This document shows, one piece after another, positions 8,755 to 16,151 of a DNA stretch of 59,576 nucleotides (its first letter is position 1; each line of letters begins with the position of its first letter). The DNA is from Desulfobaccales bacterium (GTDB lineage Bacteria; Desulfobacterota; Desulfobaccia; Desulfobaccales; 0-14-0-80-60-11). The position numbers and the translations under genes are program-made. The stretch lies in contig JBKQVS010000178.1 in the NCBI GenBank assembly GCA_052139855.1, forward strand, positions 1 to 59,576, in the 5' to 3' direction. The notes beneath the pieces were generated by a model. It was not told where the DNA came from, did not search any database, and saw nothing but the letters and a program-made list of their open reading frames with translations.

Positions 8755-9128
8755 AATTTACCCTTCTCCGGCGAGGCGATTTTCATCACGGGATATGGTT
8801 TCCCGGGTGCGCATGGGGCGTTTCTCGTCACCAGCCTGGTCTCTCGGTTCATCAGCATCGCTCCGCCGGGCAACGCCTTGCCCCACCTGACCCTGCCGGC
8901 GGGATCTGCTCCAGAGGGGATTAAGATGAGAATCTTTGGCAGAGGATTGAGCCGATAAAACTCTCATAAAAACTCCAGCCCCAAAATCACGGACAGCGAG
9001 CCATCTGGAGATATTTTATGAAAATCGTTAATTAACTACAACTTATAATAAGTTTTCGGCGCCCGGCGTGCAAGGTTGACTTGAGGGCATTTATCGGCAA
9101 ATATGGTTACATCCGTCTGGACGACCCC

Positions 9129-10019
9129 ATGCGAAATATCCTTTGCCCTCTCTGTGAGCATGATCATACCTGCCTGGTAACCCGGCGCCGGGAACGGGGC
9201 CTTACCTACACCACGGTGGAGTGCCGGGATTGCGGCCTCGTCTATCATAATCCGGTGATTGAGGACCAGGATCGTCTCGAGGCGGCCGTGAGTCACCGGC
9301 AGTGGCACACAGGTGATGCGGGTTTGCCGCGCCAACTCCGCAAGCTGGAGAAACGCTGGAACCTGCAGTGGCCCCTGATTCGGCCGGTCTTTCAGCCCGG
9401 GTATCGCGTCCTGGAGATCGGCTGCGGCCTGGGCCTGGTGGGCGCCAGGCTCAAAAGTCTGGGAGCCCGGGTGTGGGCGGTGGAGCCCGACCCGGAGCAG
9501 GCCGCCTATGCCCGAGATCACCACGGCCTGGAAGTTTTTACCGGCCGCTTCGAGGAGGCGGACTTCGCAGATGGACCCTTCGACTTGATCCTGGCCTCCC
9601 ACGTCATCGAGCATTTCCCCGAGCCCCTGGCCTTCCTGCGCCGGGCCCGGACCTACGCCCACCCGGAAACCCGGCTCTTCCTGGAAACCCCCAACGTCCT
9701 GGCCCCCAAGGTGAGCTTCCGGCGGATGTTTTCTCCGGCCCACAACTTCTACTTCGCCCCCCAGACCCTGGGCTGGCTGCTCACCAAAGCCGGCTGGCAG
9801 GAGGAAAAGCTGCGGGTGTGGCGCCGGGACGCCTTCCAGGTTCTGGCCCGCCCCGGCGTCCCCCAAGCGCCGGTGGTGGACCCCCGAGTGGCCGGGGAGG
9901 TGAGACGCGCCATCGCCCGGCACCAGTATATGTATTATCTGAAATTGCTGTTCATCTGGCGCAAAATGCCCTGGTGGCAAAAATATTGGATGTACCAGCC
10001 GCAGGAGTCCGGCCGGTAA
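9129..10019 (+). CDS. Class I SAM-dependent methyltransferase with N-terminal Cys pairs
   Basis: CPLC..CRDC, VLEIGCGLG motif I, FDLILASHVIEH, LETPN. Confidence 0.85.
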   Translation: MRNILCPLCEHDHTCLVTRRRERGLTYTTVECRDCGLVYHNPVIEDQDRLEAAVSHRQWHTGDAGLPRQLRKLEKRWNLQWPLIRPVFQPGYRVLEIGCGLGLVGARLKSLGARVWAVEPDPEQAAYARDHHGLEVFTGRFEEADFADGPFDLILASHVIEHFPEPLAFLRRARTYAHPETRLFLETPNVLAPKVSFRRMFSPAHNFYFAPQTLGWLLTKAGWQEEKLRVWRRDAFQVLARPGVPQAPVVDPRVAGEVRRAIARHQYMYYLKLLFIWRKMPWWQKYWMYQPQESGR

Positions 10020-10028
10020 ACCTTAGGC

Positions 10029-10331
10029 TCAGGTCTTCCGAACCAGCGGGATCACCTTGGCCTTGCCTTCGGGAGCGGGGGAGCCGGGCTGGGGCGGGGC
10101 TTTGGGAGGAATGAGCGTGAGTTGCACCGGCCGTCCCCCCATGGTGAACTCCTCTCCCTGGAGATGGGTCTCCTCCAGGATCCAGACCAGGGTTTGGGGG
10201 GGCAGGGCGAGCACAAGCAATTCCACTTGATACCACCCCCGCTTGACATCCGGGGTAATATCATTGACGCGGGCGTAAAACGCCGGCTTGCGGTCCAGGT
10301 GGACCAGCACCAAATCGTTGAGCGTAGCCAT
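10029..10331 (-). CDS. Hypothetical protein (about 100 aa)
   Basis: MATLNDLVLVHLDRKPAFYARVNDITPDVKRGWYQVELL..FTMGG; protein-like composition and host-like codon usage. Confidence 0.7.
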   Translation of the reverse strand: MATLNDLVLVHLDRKPAFYARVNDITPDVKRGWYQVELLVLALPPQTLVWILEETHLQGEEFTMGGRPVQLTLIPPKAPPQPGSPAPEGKAKVIPLVRKT

Positions 10332-10459
10332 GACTGTCTGATGGCGGATGGCCGGCAAGGATAATCATATCTGGGGGGACCGGCGGGACTACTCTACCAG
10401 ATCACCGCCAAAATGCAAGGGCGCGTCGTATCAACCGGAGTGGCTTAGAGGGAAACCGG

Positions 10460-10867
10460 ATGGCAGAAGTCCAATTCATCGATTTGAGCGACGAAATCAA
10501 GGCCGAGGCGCGGGGCACGAGTTTTTTCCCCTGGCAAAGGCGGCTGCAGGCGCCTGAGAACCTGGTTTCCACCTTCCATCTCGTTTCCATCAGCCCGGGC
10601 CAGAGCCGGGGCCACCACCTCCACCCCGGCCACGCGGAGTGGCTCTACCCCTTCCACGGCCGGGCCGTCTTAACCTGGGAAGCCAGCCCCGGCCAGGTCC
10701 GAGAACGGGTCATCACGGGCGACCGCACCCTGATCCACATCCCGCCGGGCCTGGCTCACGCGGTTACCAACCCCGGGCCGGCGATCCTCTATCTCCTGGC
10801 CTGGCGGGAGGTTACCGGCCCCGGCCCCACGGACCCCGAAACCATCCCCCACCCTCTGGGCGACTGA
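10460..10867 (+). CDS. Cupin domain protein
   Basis: RGHHLHPGHAEWL and IHIPPGLAHAVTN cupin motifs. Confidence 0.8.
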   Translation: MAEVQFIDLSDEIKAEARGTSFFPWQRRLQAPENLVSTFHLVSISPGQSRGHHLHPGHAEWLYPFHGRAVLTWEASPGQVRERVITGDRTLIHIPPGLAHAVTNPGPAILYLLAWREVTGPGPTDPETIPHPLGD

Positions 10868-10981
10868 GGCAGGACTACCGGGTAATGGGATATTTATCCA
10901 TTCACCCGCGGTTTATCACCCTCAGGCCAAAATTTCGGTTGGACATTACTTTCAGGGAAAATGGCATAGCAGGAAAAGGGA

Positions 10982-11035
10982 AAGCCACGAAGGCTCTTTT
11001 TCCCGTCTTCAGACCGGAATAGGCCTTCGTGGCTT
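10982..11035. terminator. Perfect 13-bp inverted repeat between convergent genes, probable terminator
   Basis: AAGCCACGAAGGC (10982-10994) ... GCCTTCGTGGCTT (11023-11035). Confidence 0.55.
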
Positions 11036-11062
11036 AATTATGGGCGGACCCGTGGTTTTCCG

Positions 11063-11224
11063 TTAATGACAGCACTTATGCTCGTGCTGATGGTGCCCCT
11101 CTCCATGGATGTGTTCGTGAGTGTGCGCTTCGGCCTCGTGCCGGTGTTCGTGTCCATCATGGCTGTGGGTACAAGCCTCGTGGCTATGCTCGTGCTCATG
11201 CTTGTCCTGGTTGTGGCAGCACAT
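11063..11224 (-). CDS. His/Cys-rich metal-binding peptide (53 aa), Hpn-like
   Basis: Own translation MCCHNQDKHEHEHSHEACTHSHDGHEHRHEAEAHTHEHIHGEGHHQHEHKCCH; AAGGAGG SD 9 nt before ATG; below the ORF-track size cutoff. Confidence 0.85.
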   Translation of the reverse strand: MCCHNQDKHEHEHSHEACTHSHDGHEHRHEAEAHTHEHIHGEGHHQHEHKCCH

Positions 11225-11259
11225 ACTGTAGTGCCTCCTTTTCTTAATCTCTTGTTTAA

Positions 11260-11288
11260 AACATAAGAACTCATCTCATTGCCGTCAA
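11260..11288 (-). promoter_or_regulatory. Sigma70-type promoter for the His-rich peptide gene
   Basis: TTGACG (11288-11283) - N17 - TATGTT (11265-11260). Confidence 0.55.
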
Positions 11289-11388
11289 GACTTGCAAACC
11301 GTAACCCGTCCCACTCGCGCTTTTCATTTGCCGTTCCTCTAGGTCCATCTCGGCTAACGCTCCGGCCATAGGCCCGGGTGGGCCAAGG

Positions 11389-12141
11389 TCAGGCCGGGTG
11401 GCACACGGGGCAGCCCTGCAGCCGGAGAGGCTTCTCCAGATTGCAGGAGGCCAAAAGCTCCTCGTCCGCCATGATCGCCTGAGTGGGGCCGTCCGCGGCG
11501 ATGCGCCCCTCCTTGAGCACCAGGGTGCGGGGGCAGAGGTCCAGGACCAGGTCCAGGTCGTGGGTGGCGATGATCAGAGAATGCTCGAAAGTCTTCAAGA
11601 GTTCGATGAGCTGGCGGCGGGTCTTGGGGTCGAGGTTGGAGCTGGGCTCATCCATGACCAGGATGGCCGGGGCCAGGGACAACACTGCGGCAATGGCCAC
11701 GGCGCGCTTTTCCCCGCCGGACAGATGGTAAGGCGGGCGGTCCTTCAGGTGGACGGCGCCCACGGCGGCCAGGGCCTGCATCACCTGCCGGTCCACCTCC
11801 TCCGGGGTCAGGCCCAGATTTAAGGGGCCAAAGGCCACGTCATCATAAACCAGGGGCATGAACAGCTGATCGTCAGGGTCCTGAAAGATCAGGCCCACGG
11901 TGCGCCGCACGTGCTTCAGGGTCTTTTTGGTCACGGGCAGGTCCCCGATGCGCACCCGCCCGGCTTCCGGCAGCAGGCAGCCGTTAAACTGGAGGAGGAG
12001 GGTGGATTTGCCGGCGCCGTTGGCACCCACCAGGGCCACCTTCTCTCCATGGGTAATCCTGAAGGAAACTCCCTTCAAAACCTGGTTGCCGTCCGGGTAG
12101 CTATAGTACAGGTCGTCGATTTCAATGATATGATGGCTCAT
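11389..12141 (-). CDS. cbiO: ECF Ni/Co transporter ATPase (NikO/CbiO)
   Basis: GANGAGKST, FQDPDDQLF, LSGGEKR, DEPSSNLDP, THDLD. Confidence 0.92.
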   Translation of the reverse strand: MSHHIIEIDDLYYSYPDGNQVLKGVSFRITHGEKVALVGANGAGKSTLLLQFNGCLLPEAGRVRIGDLPVTKKTLKHVRRTVGLIFQDPDDQLFMPLVYDDVAFGPLNLGLTPEEVDRQVMQALAAVGAVHLKDRPPYHLSGGEKRAVAIAAVLSLAPAILVMDEPSSNLDPKTRRQLIELLKTFEHSLIIATHDLDLVLDLCPRTLVLKEGRIAADGPTQAIMADEELLASCNLEKPLRLQGCPVCHPA

Positions 12142-12950
12142 TTGAGCAGCTCCATGACCCAGGCGCCTGACAATTGGGAGACATTATAGAGCCTGAGCAG
12201 TATGAAAAAACCGGACCAGCCCAGGAAAAAGCCCACATCCCGGCCATGGAGGTGCAGGGGCCGGAGCAGGCGGATTTCGCCGTCGAAGCCCCGGGAGAGC
12301 ATGGCCAGGTGCAGGCGCTGGGCCCGGTCCAGGGTGCGCAGGAGCAGGTGGCCGAGCATGGAGCTATAGGCCCCAAAGCCCTGGCCGCGGCCATCAAAGG
12401 TGCGCAAGGCCCGGGCCCGCACCATCCGGGCGGCTTCGCCCCCCAGCACGAACAGATAGCGGTAGAGGAAGAGGAGCTGAAGAGCGAAGGCCCGGGGCAG
12501 CCCCAGCCGCTCCAGCGCGGCGCACACCTGGTGAAAGCCGGTGACGGCCACCAGAATCAGGGCGGCGCTCACCGTCAGGACGAACCGGAGCATAATGGAG
12601 AAAAAGGAAACCCAACCGCCGGAAATGGCCAGGGGGCCGAGGTGCGCCATGACCTGCCGGTCCAGCAAGGGGTTGAAGATGCCGATGAAAAAGGCGAAAG
12701 GCGCGGCGATCAAGATTTTCTTCCCCAGGTACCCGACGGGCACATTGCCCAAGGCAATGAGGACCACCGGGTAGAGAATGAAGGGAATCAGGCTGCCGAC
12801 GGCGTACTTGGGGAAGGAGACCACGGCCACGATGAACACCATGGTGGTGAGGAGTTTCACCCGGGGGTCGAGCCGGTGGATGGGGGTGGCCTGGTAGGAC
12901 AGCGTCTCCAGATAGCCGATATTATAGAGAGAATTTTCGATGGTGCCCAT
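12138..12950 (-). CDS. cbiQ: ECF Ni/Co transporter T component (NikQ/CbiQ)
   Basis: HRLDPRVK, YRYLFVL..EA.RM.RAR..R, AMLSRGF. Confidence 0.92.
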   Translation of the reverse strand: MGTIENSLYNIGYLETLSYQATPIHRLDPRVKLLTTMVFIVAVVSFPKYAVGSLIPFILYPVVLIALGNVPVGYLGKKILIAAPFAFFIGIFNPLLDRQVMAHLGPLAISGGWVSFFSIMLRFVLTVSAALILVAVTGFHQVCAALERLGLPRAFALQLLFLYRYLFVLGGEAARMVRARALRTFDGRGQGFGAYSSMLGHLLLRTLDRAQRLHLAMLSRGFDGEIRLLRPLHLHGRDVGFFLGWSGFFILLRLYNVSQLSGAWVMELLK

Positions 12951-12974
12951 GGGTGCGCCTCAGAAAGCCCGGGG

Positions 12975-14012
12975 TCAGCCTTGGTGACCAGCATACTTTT
13001 TCAGGCCGAAGCCGATGGCCCCGACCAGGAGCAGGGTGATGGCGGCCCCCAGCACCCCCGCCAGGGATCTGCCGGGGTTGACGTCGGGCCAGCTCTCTGC
13101 TTTTTTGGCATTTCTTTCGCCTTCCGGCTTCCTGAAGTCATAGTCCGGCAGAAAGGCGAGCTTTTCCTGGAGGGAGGCCAGGACCCCGTGCGCCCCGGCC
13201 ATGGGGGCCTCAACCTCCTCCTTGCCGGTGACGCCCTGGATGGCCCACTCCAGCCCGTCCGGATGGGTGGAGGCAAACCAGGAGAGGAGGCCGCCGGTGA
13301 ACAGGGCCAGGGCCACCAGTCCGATGATGACCGGCTTGAAGGAGCGGGGCGGGCCCGACGCCGCGGCGGGGAGCGCCATCTCCAGGATTTCCGGCCGGGC
13401 CTTCCAGACGAAGGTCACCACCGCCGCGGTGATGAGGCCTTCCACCACGCCGATGGCCAGGTGGATCGGCAGCATCAAGAGCATAAACGTGACGAAAGGA
13501 AGTTCCGAAATGCCGGAAAAGAGGGTCTCAAGAACGACCGCGCAAGCGCCCATCACCACGCTTAGCATGGCAGCGGCCAGGGCTCCCTGCAGAATGCGGC
13601 CCCGGGTGGTGCGGTCTCCCACGATCTTCTGATAAATAAAGGGATAGGCTACGAAACAGGCAAAAAATCCCATATTGAAGATGTTGCATCCCAAGGCCAG
13701 CAAACCGCCGTCAGCAAAAAACAAGGCCTGCACCGTGATCACCGAGGCCAGGGTGAGAAAGGCGGCATAAGGTCCCAACAGGATGCTCAGAATGATGCCG
13801 CCCACCAGGTGGCCGCTGGAACCGGTGGCGGGGATGGTGAAGTTGATCATTTGGGCCGCGAACACGAAGGCCCCCAGGACTCCCATGAGGGGGAGCTTGC
13901 GGTCGTCCATTTCCTGTTTCAGTTTCCTGGCGCTGTAATAGGTGAGGCCCGCGGTGGCGGCCCACATGGTACCGCCCACTACCGGGGAAATTAAGGCGTC
14001 GGCCATGTGCAT
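12975..14012 (-). CDS. ECF Ni/Co S component fused to a PDGLE domain (NikMN type)
   Basis: Metal-binding N-terminus MHMADAL, FAAQMINF, TGSSGHL, GGLLALGCN; C-terminal ASTHPDGLEW..LPDY. Confidence 0.92.
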   Translation of the reverse strand: MHMADALISPVVGGTMWAATAGLTYYSARKLKQEMDDRKLPLMGVLGAFVFAAQMINFTIPATGSSGHLVGGIILSILLGPYAAFLTLASVITVQALFFADGGLLALGCNIFNMGFFACFVAYPFIYQKIVGDRTTRGRILQGALAAAMLSVVMGACAVVLETLFSGISELPFVTFMLLMLPIHLAIGVVEGLITAAVVTFVWKARPEILEMALPAAASGPPRSFKPVIIGLVALALFTGGLLSWFASTHPDGLEWAIQGVTGKEEVEAPMAGAHGVLASLQEKLAFLPDYDFRKPEGERNAKKAESWPDVNPGRSLAGVLGAAITLLLVGAIGFGLKKYAGHQG

Positions 14013-14075
14013 GACTCATCCTCCTGATCGTTTAAGAGCATGGTTACCTCCTGAATTTCTCCAAAATTTCTTGGC

Positions 14076-15089
14076 CTAAAAATTATGATATGCGGTAACC
14101 ATAGGCGTGACTTTACGACTGCCGGCTTTGCCCATCAGGTCGATGGCGGTGCCGGCGGAAACGGCCCATTTTTCCGTGATAATGTACTCGATCCCCGGGA
14201 GGAGTCCCAAAAGGGTGCTGGGGGATTGGAACCCCTGAGGAGAAGAAATATTGGTCCAGGTCCAGTTGCTGTACATTTCCAGCAGCAGAACCCATTTGGG
14301 ATTGATGGGATATTCCGCCGCCAGGTTGAAGGTTACAAATTCACGGGAGCGGACCGAACTAGGGTTCGAGGTATAAAGGTTAACCGGACTATTTAACCAA
14401 ATATTGCTATAGAATAGGAACGGTTTCAGCCATTTGTAGAGGTTGATGCCGGTGGTGAAGGTGAAGGCCCCGGTGCCGATGGCATCCTGACCCAGGAGCG
14501 CCGGATTGAGGTGGTGGGCGTGGCCGGTGGGAAAACCCACGCCTCCCACCCCCGTGACCGCGGGCGTGAATTCGGTTTCTTCCAGCAACAAGTACTTGGC
14601 CACCGCCGTAACATCTCCGATTCCGCCGTAACTGGCGGAACGTTCGCCATTGGGACCGGCAATACTCGCATCGAGGCTGTTGCAAAAGTTATTGATGAAG
14701 GGAGCGATGACATAGAGCTCCAGGTTTTTGGTAGGGCCATAGGTAAATTTGACCGGCATGAGAAAAGTGTAATAATTCCCCTTGGCACTCGTATAGCGCC
14801 AGTTATTAGAGAAAAGCGCTGGGGAAAAAGAAAAGGCCGAGAGGACCTGGAGACTGGCATGGTGCTCCTCAATGGGAAGGCAACTGTCGCTGATCAGGGG
14901 GCCGCACGTGGTGGGGGCTCCCTCTTTTTTTGCTGCTTTTTTCTCTTCCTCCGCTTGTTCCGGTCCTGGTTTCTCCATAATGGCGGCTGGGCCTTGGGCC
15001 GCGGCCGGCACCGCAGAACCAAATACCCACCCGTTGAAAAAAATCAGCAGCAGGAACATTGCTCCTTTCCTGCAATGAATCAATCCCAT
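14076..15089 (-). CDS. Outer-membrane beta-barrel of the COG4313/Phenol_MetA_deg ('transporter') type
   Basis: Signal peptide, GGIGD, GFPTG, alternating beta-strand pattern, C-terminal Phe; AAGGGAG SD before ATG 15089. Confidence 0.7.
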   Translation of the reverse strand: MGLIHCRKGAMFLLLIFFNGWVFGSAVPAAAQGPAAIMEKPGPEQAEEEKKAAKKEGAPTTCGPLISDSCLPIEEHHASLQVLSAFSFSPALFSNNWRYTSAKGNYYTFLMPVKFTYGPTKNLELYVIAPFINNFCNSLDASIAGPNGERSASYGGIGDVTAVAKYLLLEETEFTPAVTGVGGVGFPTGHAHHLNPALLGQDAIGTGAFTFTTGINLYKWLKPFLFYSNIWLNSPVNLYTSNPSSVRSREFVTFNLAAEYPINPKWVLLLEMYSNWTWTNISSPQGFQSPSTLLGLLPGIEYIITEKWAVSAGTAIDLMGKAGSRKVTPMVTAYHNF

Positions 15090-15221
15090 ATTTACTCCCT
15101 TGCTGAAATAACAAAAAAAACCACGAAAACCTGGCACCTGCTGGCACCCAAGCCTTCGTGGCTGTTTGGCTCAAATTGGTTATTTCTCTGCTATCCGGGG
15201 TTCATCCCCGAAGTCTCGCTC

Positions 15222-15250
15222 AATTTATGGCAAGTGGGAGAAAATGTCAA
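15222..15250 (-). promoter_or_regulatory. Sigma70-type promoter of the barrel-nikMNQO operon
   Basis: TTGACA (15250-15245) - N17 - TAAATT (15227-15222). Confidence 0.55.
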
Positions 15251-15284
15251 GCATTTTCCCGGGTGAATTCGACTCAGAAGAATC

Positions 15285-16151
15285 TTAGCTGGACAGATGA
15301 TATTCCCGGCGGCGCCAGGCTTTGAGGGCTTCCACCAGGTTGTAGGTGAGCCGGTCCTGGCAGGGCATGGACCCCAGGGTGATCTCGGGCTTGTTGAGGC
15401 CGTGGTAGTCGGAGCCGCCGGTGATCAGGAGGTCAAGCTCCCGGGCCAGCTTCAGATAGAGGGCTTGCTGCTCCGGGGTGTGCTCGGAGTAGAAGACCTC
15501 GAGGCCCGCCAACCCCTGGGCTTTCAGTTCCATAACCAGGTTTTTCAGGGCATAGGCCGTGCCCTGGTTCAGGGTGAAGGGGTGGGCCAGGACCGGGATG
15601 CCTTTGGCCTCCCGGATCATGGCCAGGGCCTGGTCCGGGGGAAAGCGAAATTTGCTGACGTAGGCGGGTTTGCGCCAACCCAGGTATTTGTCGAAGGCTT
15701 CCTGGAGGTCTGCGACGTAGCCCGCCTCCATCAGGGCCCGGGCGATGTGGGGCCGGCCCACCTGGCCGCCGCCGGAGATCTCCTCCACCCGGGCCATGGT
15801 GACGGTGATGCCCAAGGCGTTGAGCTTATTAATGATCTGGGGATTGCGGTCGAGGCGGGCCTGTTTGAGCACCGCCAGGCGCTGGTCCAGGAGGCCGTTG
15901 TGGTAATCGACGTAGAGGCCCAGGATGTGCATGGTGCCGCCGGGAAACTGGGCGCTGATCTCCACCCCGGGAATGACCTCGAGCCCGTGGGTCTGGCCCG
16001 CGGCCACGGCCTCGGGCAGGCCATCCACGGTGTCGTGATCGGTGAGGGCCATGGCCGTGAGGCCGCCCTCCTTGGCAAAGCGCACCACCTCCGCCGGTGG
16101 ATAAGAGCCGTCGGAGGCGCTGGAGTGGACGTGGAGGTCTATAAGTTTCAT
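15285..16151 (-). CDS. PHP domain phosphoesterase (TrpH/YciV-like)
   Basis: DLHVHSSASDG, ALTDHDT, GVEIS, HILG, LAHP, GGSDYHG. Confidence 0.92.
   Translation of the reverse strand: MKLIDLHVHSSASDGSYPPAEVVRFAKEGGLTAMALTDHDTVDGLPEAVAAGQTHGLEVIPGVEISAQFPGGTMHILGLYVDYHNGLLDQRLAVLKQARLDRNPQIINKLNALGITVTMARVEEISGGGQVGRPHIARALMEAGYVADLQEAFDKYLGWRKPAYVSKFRFPPDQALAMIREAKGIPVLAHPFTLNQGTAYALKNLVMELKAQGLAGLEVFYSEHTPEQQALYLKLARELDLLITGGSDYHGLNKPEITLGSMPCQDRLTYNLVEALKAWRRREYHLSS

Follow-up and report, generated by a model that had tools for sequence, protein, structure and literature searches.

The window analysed here is a stretch of 59,576 nt, contig JBKQVS010000178.1 of assembly GCA_052139855.1, from a Desulfobaccales bacterium of the phylum Desulfobacterota. 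On its minus strand, directly after the genes of a nickel/cobalt importer, lies an open reading frame (ORF) of 53 codons plus stop (11063..11224, with the ATG at 11224 and the TAA at 11065..11063), which encodes the peptide MCCHNQDKHEHEHSHEACTHSHDGHEHRHEAEAHTHEHIHGEGHHQHEHKCCH. The sequence, conservation and substitution pattern of this ORF indicate that it is almost certainly a real protein-coding gene. We propose that its product is a cytoplasmic microprotein that buffers and donates Ni(II) at multiple sites. To this statement as a whole, which includes that the gene is genuinely translated, we assign a probability of roughly 0.65.

The peptide gene and its expression signals

The 53 residues of MCCHNQDKHEHEHSHEACTHSHDGHEHRHEAEAHTHEHIHGEGHHQHEHKCCH include 19 His, 5 Cys, 9 Glu and 2 Asp. 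The peptide opens with MCCH and closes with KCCH, so that a Cys-Cys pair stands at each end (residues 2–3 and 51–52), and the ligands are laid out in four HxHxH-type strands set apart by DG or GxG turns. The longest His run is HH (positions 44–45), the pattern otherwise being alternating HxH, and neither a signal sequence nor a hydrophobic segment was found in the 53 residues. Translation of 11224..11063 gave a sequence identical to that in a preliminary description of this DNA, which had drawn attention to the 19 His and 5 Cys residues, the alternating HX spacing and the CCH motif at both ends. The His content is well past the chance level. With a six-frame His frequency of 2.8% in the genome, the binomial probability of finding 19 or more His among 53 residues is 1.4e-16, and of the 45,320 open frames in the genome with a length of 40 amino acids or more, only this ORF and a paralogue (C9:21899-22192) contain 19 His within 50 residues. 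Tryptic peptides in the size range suitable for mass spectrometry, as derived from the sequence, are HEHEHSHEACTHSHDGHEHR and HEAEAHTHEHIHGEGHHQHEHK.

A promoter scan, for which 0.2 promoter-like sites were expected in shuffled sequences, located a sigma-70-like promoter at 11260..11288 on the minus strand, with a −35 element TTGACG (11288..11283), a 17-nt spacer and a −10 element TATGTT (11265..11260). The Shine-Dalgarno sequence AAGGAGG, read directly from the sequence (11234..11240, minus strand), lies 9 nt before the ATG. Both signals had been named in the preliminary description, and both are kept in homologues: a TTGACA-~17-TAtAAT pair occurs at the matching place in nearly all of more than 50 homologous loci, whatever the neighbours, and AAAGGAGGTGA-like ribosome sites occur at the same spacing. 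When loci of different context are compared, conservation is limited to the −35, the −10 and the ribosome site, and both the spacer and the 5′ untranslated region (UTR), which is AT-rich, vary. With its near-consensus promoter, its strong ribosome site and its structured terminator, the peptide gene forms an autonomous unit of ~290 nt, which can also be reached by read-through from nikO.

Evidence for a conserved coding gene

A six-frame search of 41 related genomes recovered a full-length homologue in 35 of them, with identities of 66–85% and in a frame that is usually open for only 53–55 codons. Genome and metagenome scans raised the number of distinct loci to at least 97, mostly of exactly 53 codons; 48 of the metagenomic copies were intact, at exactly 53 residues. 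In an alignment of 32 sequences, 18 columns are invariant (15 His together with M1, G24 and E37), C2, C3, D7, K8, C51 and C52 are near-invariant, and the Cys-Cys pairs at 2–3 and 51–52 are at least 90% conserved. The pattern of nucleotide substitution was analysed in 52 unique orthologues of 162 nt. The numbers of variable sites at the three codon positions were 24/23/52, all third positions being variable, and CAT and CAC were used about equally. In the His frame, the proportion of synonymous differences (pS) was 0.82 and that of nonsynonymous differences (pN) 0.15, corresponding to a pN/pS of 0.18 and showing purifying selection.

These values bear directly on the alternative that the ORF is not a gene, being either a chance frame or the shadow of a 66-codon hydrophobic ORF on the plus strand. 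The antisense frame (11066..11266, plus strand) is open in all homologues, but merely because CAY and GAR codons read RTG and YTC on the opposite strand. Two open antisense frames had pN/pS values of 1.56 and 1.38, the former compared with 0.18 in the His frame, and the three conserved signals, promoter, ribosome site and terminator, all belong to the minus strand. This alternative has practically no chance of being correct and is already refuted by the substitution pattern. Since antisense pN/pS exceeds 1 as against 0.18, the hydrophobic 66-codon ORF was rejected as the gene in question.

Occurrence of the family

Annotation pipelines had been expected in the preliminary description to overlook the gene, and the predicted-protein collections examined indeed hold the family only as fragments. 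In an exact look-up in a collection of ~15 billion predicted proteins, the peptide, 8 homologues and both shadow ORFs were all absent. A phmmer search against 1.84 billion cluster representatives returned 6 matches in total, four of which are truncated, with tails that depart from the family sequence, apparently through frameshifts; the other two are P0001, located at a contig end, and P0004, a paralogue fused to an HMA domain. A word-indexed protein search yielded one truncated match. The peptide matched no Pfam or NCBIfam family at E ≤ 0.01, and a sequence search of the PDB produced just two chance matches (E ~6).

Among the matches listed, all named records are metagenome-assembled genomes labelled Desulfobaccales, Desulfobacca, Desulfobaccia, Syntrophobacterales or unclassified Deltaproteobacteria. 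When 401 genomes were sampled evenly across the phylum, 17 proved to contain the peptide; they belong to the order of the window and to one other genus. The family is confined mainly to Desulfobaccales.

Genomic neighbourhood

Matches to Pfam and NCBIfam identified an importer of the energy-coupling factor (ECF) type upstream of the peptide gene on the minus strand (11389..14012), consisting of a fused CbiM+PDGLE gene (nikMN-like, 14012..12975), CbiQ (12950..12138) and the ATPase CbiO (12141..11389). The first gene of this operon (14076..15137, minus strand) encodes an outer-membrane barrel of the Phenol_MetA_deg family (Pfam), which is possibly a nickel entry pore. Its annotated GTG start is probably wrong, the true start likely being an ATG near 15089 with its own AAGGGAG site just past the U-tract of a leader RNA that is discussed below. 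The location directly after a Ni/Co importer, as first described, was confirmed, and the order of importer followed by peptide is kept in the genus of the window, in which the genes run PHP-[OMP]-CbiM/PDGLE-CbiQ-CbiO-peptide (OMP, outer-membrane protein), convergent with a cupin gene.

In other genera, the peptide gene lies behind, or divergent from, a second, paralogous CbiM-CbiQ-CbiO-OMP cluster. In another family of the phylum (L074-L077), the peptide unit precedes an operon for a TonB-dependent receptor (TBDR), DUF4198 and ExbB. One metagenomic contig carries ExbB-ExbD, DUF4198 and the peptide together, and elsewhere the peptide gene is convergent with a CbiK-like gene or stands next to TonB. 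When only loci with at least 4 kb of flanking sequence were counted (n = 58), a metal-uptake neighbour was present within 6 kb in 46; the neighbours comprised ECF components (32 loci), the barrel (22), CbiK-like genes (18), TonB-system genes (8), CooT (5) and DUF3842 (4). A lack of positional homologues had been named at the outset as grounds for abandoning the assignment; many homologues lie beside Ni/Co importers, and positional homologues occur in at least four independent arrangements.

Further observations concern the immediate surroundings. In one genome of the genus (L030, G015:C2), PHP-peptide-cupin is retained and the whole importer operon is gone. A 109-residue ORF without family match (10029-10358, minus strand) and a small cupin gene (10460-10867, plus strand) are syntenic with the peptide gene across genus and family.

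The frequent adjacency to the outer-membrane barrel, TBDR, TonB/ExbBD and periplasmic capture proteins might also be taken to indicate an exported, ribosomally made nickelophore that is re-imported via the neighbouring outer-membrane and TonB systems. However, the peptide lacks both a signal peptide and a leader, and the varied neighbourhoods share no conserved exporter, protease or modifying enzyme. ECF NikM, moreover, binds bare metal ions and does not take peptides. We therefore consider a nickelophore highly improbable.

A structured 3′UTR with a box shared by leader RNAs

The preliminary description had noted a hairpin downstream of the peptide gene. A long hairpin 3′ of the stop codon is present, AAGCCACGAAGGC...GCCTTCGTGGCTT (11035..10981, minus strand), but it is no plain terminator: it belongs to a conserved structure with two mutually exclusive helices and carries a box that is shared with leaders of nickel genes. 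The 3′UTR has a fixed plan, in which segment A is followed by ~18 nt, segment B, an inner hairpin with a UGAA loop, segment C and a U-tract, all on the minus strand. Segment A (GGAAAACCACG, 11051..11061; family consensus GGAAAGCCACG) starts 1–3 nt past the stop codon and, by pairing and folding analysis, can pair with C. Segment B (AAGCCACGAAGGCC, 11022..11035) holds the invariant box GCCACGAAGGC (11033..11023) and likewise pairs with C; it could also fold locally as GCC-ACGAA-GGC. The inner hairpin CCGGTC-TGAA-GACGGG (11002..11017), recognised by compensatory changes, lies inside the B:C helix. Segment C (GCCTTCGTGGCTTTCCC, in the fixed plan GCGTTCGTGGCTTTCC), which together with the U-tract spans 10974..10994 as defined by sequence and pairing, serves as 3′ arm in both helices and forms the end of the transcript.

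In 34 sequences, the A:C helix was 97.9% paired, with 3 pairs changed on both sides, and the inner hairpin showed compensatory changes at 5 of 6 pairs. The B:C helix was paired in 98.5% of cells and mostly invariant. The minimum-free-energy fold of a consensus-like copy contained the A:C helix, and masking of the first 16 nt gave B:C. The box lies at most 60 nt from the stop codon in 47 of the 48 metagenomic homologues. No Rfam 15 family matched at E ≤ 1 in 9000-16000 on either strand, and no cobalamin (B12) riboswitch was found there. In L074-L077, a second box-bearing terminator lies ~45 nt past the 3′ element, resulting in tandem terminators before the receptor gene.

Sequences of the AAGCCACGAAGGC type occur at only four relevant places in the genome, namely the 3′ end of the peptide gene and three leaders, which are located before the outer-membrane barrel gene, before DUF3842-cooT (C9:14426-14525) and before a second importer (C9:15649-15756). 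The leader of the OMP-nikMNQO operon (15113..15215, minus strand; 79.4 bits with the covariance model) consists of a P1 hairpin (CGGGG-ATGAA-CCCCG), a linker and a terminator CAGCCACGAAGGC...TTCGTGG-T8 with the same box, and is preceded by a promoter, TTGACA-N17-TAAATT, at ~15250..15222. The second leader is followed by a gene for DUF3842 (C9:14686-15105) and one for CooT (~C9:15108-15296, PF10133, 84.7 bits).

Twenty-four leaders from different loci share one plan: a 6-bp hairpin with an NNGAA pentaloop in which G-A-A is invariant, a linker of ~45 nt and an intrinsic terminator, the 5′ arm of which contains the invariant GCCAYGAAGGC. Compensatory changes were observed at 10 of the 21 predicted pairs, including eight changes from C-G to U-A in the box stem. 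The covariance model of the leader, R1, detected 37 full-length copies in the fetched loci at 44–88 bits; each of 39 genomes of the order contains 1–7 copies, and two outgroups contain none. No Rfam family matches the leader RNA. The 3′UTRs of the peptide genes match the terminator half of R1 at 22–37 bits (24.4 bits for the window copy at 10982-11035, model positions 52–99); they lack the upstream P1 and have the UGAA-loop inner hairpin and the extra segment A instead. As we read the invariant columns, the box could fold as GCC-AYGAA-GGC, with a loop like that of P1, and would then compete with the terminator.

None of the 39 genomes sampled from the order, that of the window included, encodes a NikR_C domain, and one outgroup genome does; no NikR box (GTGTTAC-N13/14-GTAACAC) was found near the nik genes. 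NikR control of the locus was rejected on these grounds. The distribution of leaders and of NikR suggests that an RNA-based nickel regulon stands in for NikR across the order, and sharing of the box would place the peptide gene in this regulon.

Regulatory roles for the peptide or its gene must be weighed at this point. The regulon box in the gene's own 3′UTR (47 of 48 metagenomic copies), in an order that lacks NikR and whose nickel sensor is therefore still missing, would fit a peptide that serves as nickel sensor or co-factor of RNA attenuators, for example if its Ni-loaded form modulated a factor reading the GAA-loop hairpins. Such a role is improbable, given that genomes of the order without the peptide still carry 2–7 leaders and that 24 strong ligands far exceed the needs of a sensor.

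The position of segment A, 1–3 nt past the stop codon and thus within the footprint of a terminating ribosome, is compatible with a regulatory leader-type ORF, in which translation through the His codons sets the downstream fold and the peptide is a by-product. Masking of A shifts the predicted fold from A:C to B:C, and one family has the unit upstream of a TBDR operon. We nevertheless regard this as very improbable: non-His residues (M1, C2, C3, D7, K8, G24, E37, C51 and C52) and the length of 53 are conserved, pN/pS is 0.18, the His codons alternate with others and form no run, and a paralogue is fused to an HMA domain. In addition, the next gene is convergent in most loci, which leaves nothing downstream to regulate.

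A protein function combined with an RNA function is doubtful but somewhat easier to envisage. The unit would then be a dual-function RNA whose ORF yields a nickel-binding microprotein and whose 3′UTR acts as a riboregulatory module of the NikR-independent nickel regulon. The terminating ribosome would cover segment A, so that translation of the ORF would decide on the exposure of the box and the inner GAA-loop hairpin; once exposed, these could mimic the P1-plus-box pair of the importer leaders and bind and titrate the factor that reads them. If this were true, the amount of store protein made would be coupled to nickel import.

Paralogues

A paralogous subfamily, MCKKDKHEHEH...HKESK (51–53 amino acids; L012, L022, L034), has neither the Cys pairs nor the RNA box, and its members carry plain terminators. 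Such a paralogue often stands immediately before the gene of the Cys-Cys type. In P0004, a member of the subfamily is fused to a C-terminal CopZ-type HMA domain with the motif GMTCEHC; this fusion supports a metal-handling role, its genomic context being uninformative. The window peptide itself lacks the MxCxxC ferredoxin-like HMA (CopZ-type) domain.

One additional paralogue and a probable remnant of another were observed. A second CbiM-CbiQ-CbiO-OMP cluster of the genome (C9:15649-22211, L043) lies behind the third leader and is closed, at the contig end, by a 103-residue, tandem-doubled paralogue without terminal Cys pairs (C9:21899-22192). On a metagenomic contig, a remnant of 17 codons, MCKKDQHEHEHTHEGKA, lies between DUF4198 and the gene of the Cys-Cys type (L001 2606-2659, L002); it has a ribosome site of its own and resembles a truncated paralogue.

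Metal specificity and proposed function

The S component of the importer is CbiM fused to PDGLE (Pfam), an arrangement also known from nik(MN) of Geobacter (PMC545781). Of the partner proteins, NikN is specific for nickel and CbiN for cobalt (PMC2667541). The strongest pointer to nickel is the RNA box, which also heads the DUF3842-CooT operon; CooT is a nickel chaperone of CO dehydrogenase (CODH; PMC6006190). Potential nickel consumers are encoded in the genome, with one CODH match over the curated cut-off, two partial matches at contig ends and three [NiFe] hydrogenase loci.

From these data, we infer that the peptide binds metal, that this metal is nickel, and that the peptide acts as buffer and donor, as well as the removal of its Met and its fold. 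The peptide would buffer and briefly store nickel just inside the importers, keeping free nickel low during uptake, and would then hand it to the maturation proteins CooT/CooC and HypA/B of CO dehydrogenases and [NiFe] hydrogenases. Each chain would bind several Ni(II), roughly 4–6 by ligand count, because it has 24 His and Cys residues and Hpn of Helicobacter binds 5 Ni with 32 such residues. The alternation of HxH with DG and GxG turns suggests strands that present their His residues on one face. Removal of Met before Cys is expected by the usual methionine aminopeptidase rule. It would leave a Cys-Cys-His start, in which the free amine and His3 could form a square-planar Ni/Cu site like that of amino-terminal Cu- and Ni-binding (ATCUN) motifs, flanked by thiolates. 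The residue concerned, His4 of the full-length chain (third after Met1), is present in 28 of 32 aligned members, the motif being conditional on removal of Met1. Closure of a metal-bridged loop by the terminal CCH motifs, as suggested in the preliminary description, would be a further possibility.

Several points weigh against this proposal. The neighbours alone do not fix the metal, as ECF Cbi/Nik importers carry Co or Ni and their families are common to both (PMC2667541). The CbiK-like neighbours, found in 18 of 58 loci, bear a cobalt-chelatase family name, and the only characterised DUF4198 protein captures zinc (PMC12663993). His, Cys and Glu can also serve as ligands of Zn, Co and Cu. A protein of this kind could accordingly be a His-type bacterial metallothionein for cobalt, zinc or divalent metals generally, which we consider unlikely, if still a realistic possibility: the CbiM+PDGLE fusion fits the nik(MN) type and not CbiN (PMC545781), the locus has no cobalamin riboswitch, and the shared RNA box also heads DUF3842-CooT.

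Other points concern regulation, need and structure. A comparison across loci revealed no recognisable metal-responsive operator in the peptide promoter, any nickel control of which is putative. The peptide is missing from one genus of the order and from one complete genome in a single contig, although the leader RNA is present there; it is therefore dispensable. AlphaFold2, run on the 32-sequence alignment, predicted a β-meander (strands 8-15, 18-22, 25-29 and 32-39) that fits the alternating pattern, but the model is weak (mean pLDDT, predicted local distance difference test, of 60.5, with termini below 50), and the four-strand fold is only a hint. On the supporting side, the ORF and the 3′ element of relatives are covered by contigs assembled from four metatranscriptomes, of peat, ice, estuary and one unspecified origin, although these contigs are short, unstranded and possibly affected by DNA carry-over. 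The host organism is known only as a metagenome-assembled genome.

A nickel buffer of this kind would be of relevance because CO dehydrogenase/acetyl-CoA synthase and hydrogenases are limited by the supply of nickel in anaerobes living where sulfide strips free nickel, and because little is known, beyond Helicobacter and a few models, of how such bacteria hold and route nickel after import. What is new here is a family of small, highly ordered and probably nickel-binding proteins, of which the gene catalogues tested contain only fragments, so that it is invisible to surveys built on predicted proteomes, and which is tied by a shared RNA box to a putative RNA-based nickel regulon. The small size of the peptide permits its synthesis, making its metal chemistry, its metal-bound fold and its use as a natural metal-binding tag directly testable.

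Comparison with known systems

Hpn binds 5 Ni per monomer, and CC motifs are present in every Hpn (PMC4671568). Like Hpn and Hpn-2, the peptide belongs to a size class of ~50–70 residues, is more than one-third His, contains Cys-Cys pairs, is predicted to be cytoplasmic, and is encoded by a stand-alone gene within a nickel economy supplying Ni enzymes. Hpn, however, has His runs and is a fast-evolving, low-complexity sequence, whereas the peptide has strict HxH spacing, fixed turns, a fixed length and 18 invariant columns. The gene hpn is regulated by NikR, which the order of the peptide lacks, and the two further differ in host clade, habitat and the presence of a conserved structured 3′UTR. 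No homology to Helicobacter Hpn was detected with phmmer against the 1.84 billion representatives or by the word-based search. Of the initial label "Hpn-like", the functional resemblance and the CC motifs can thus be retained but not a link by descent, and the peptide has neither the His runs nor the NikR control of Hpn.

The metallothioneins SmtA/BmtA and MymT are likewise small, cytoplasmic metal-buffering peptides of ~50–56 residues. They form Cys-dominated Zn or Cu(I) clusters, in contrast to the 19 His and 5 Cys of the peptide, which matched no metallothionein profile of Pfam or NCBIfam at E ≤ 0.01. The His stretches of HypB and UreE hold nickel for the maturation of hydrogenase or urease. 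A comparable element is the C-terminal metal-binding tail of Escherichia coli SlyD, which serves nickel provision for hydrogenase maturation (PMC11198818). These stretches and the peptide have in common the alternation of H-D/E-H with interspersed CC pairs; those of SlyD, HypB and UreE are appendages of folded proteins, while the peptide is a free-standing product of 53 residues.

CooJ binds 4 Ni with a 16-His domain, and CooT is a small β protein that binds Ni via Cys2 (PMC6006190). The peptide and most of its paralogues also begin with Met-Cys, and in the genome of the window a cooT gene lies behind a leader RNA that carries the box of the peptide gene; the CooT profile PF10133 nevertheless does not match the peptide, despite the presence of Cys2. 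CooJ has an extra N-terminal domain, whereas the peptide lacks such a domain and is made up of metal ligands throughout.

For the RNA, the nearest likeness is to the dual-hairpin antiterminator targets of ANTAR-type regulators and to other small-hairpin attenuators. Here too, two small hairpins have similar loops, and one of the hairpins extends into the 5′ arm of an intrinsic terminator. The two like-looped hairpins of the leader would be P1 and the box when read as GCC-AYGAA-GGC. ANTAR-type targets have A/G-marked hexaloops, whereas the leader RNA has NNGAA pentaloops and a linker of ~45 nt; in the peptide gene, moreover, the element is found at the 3′ end and not in a leader. For the peptide itself, the best reading is that it would be analogous, rather than homologous, to Hpn/Hpn-2, CooJ and the SlyD/HypB tails.

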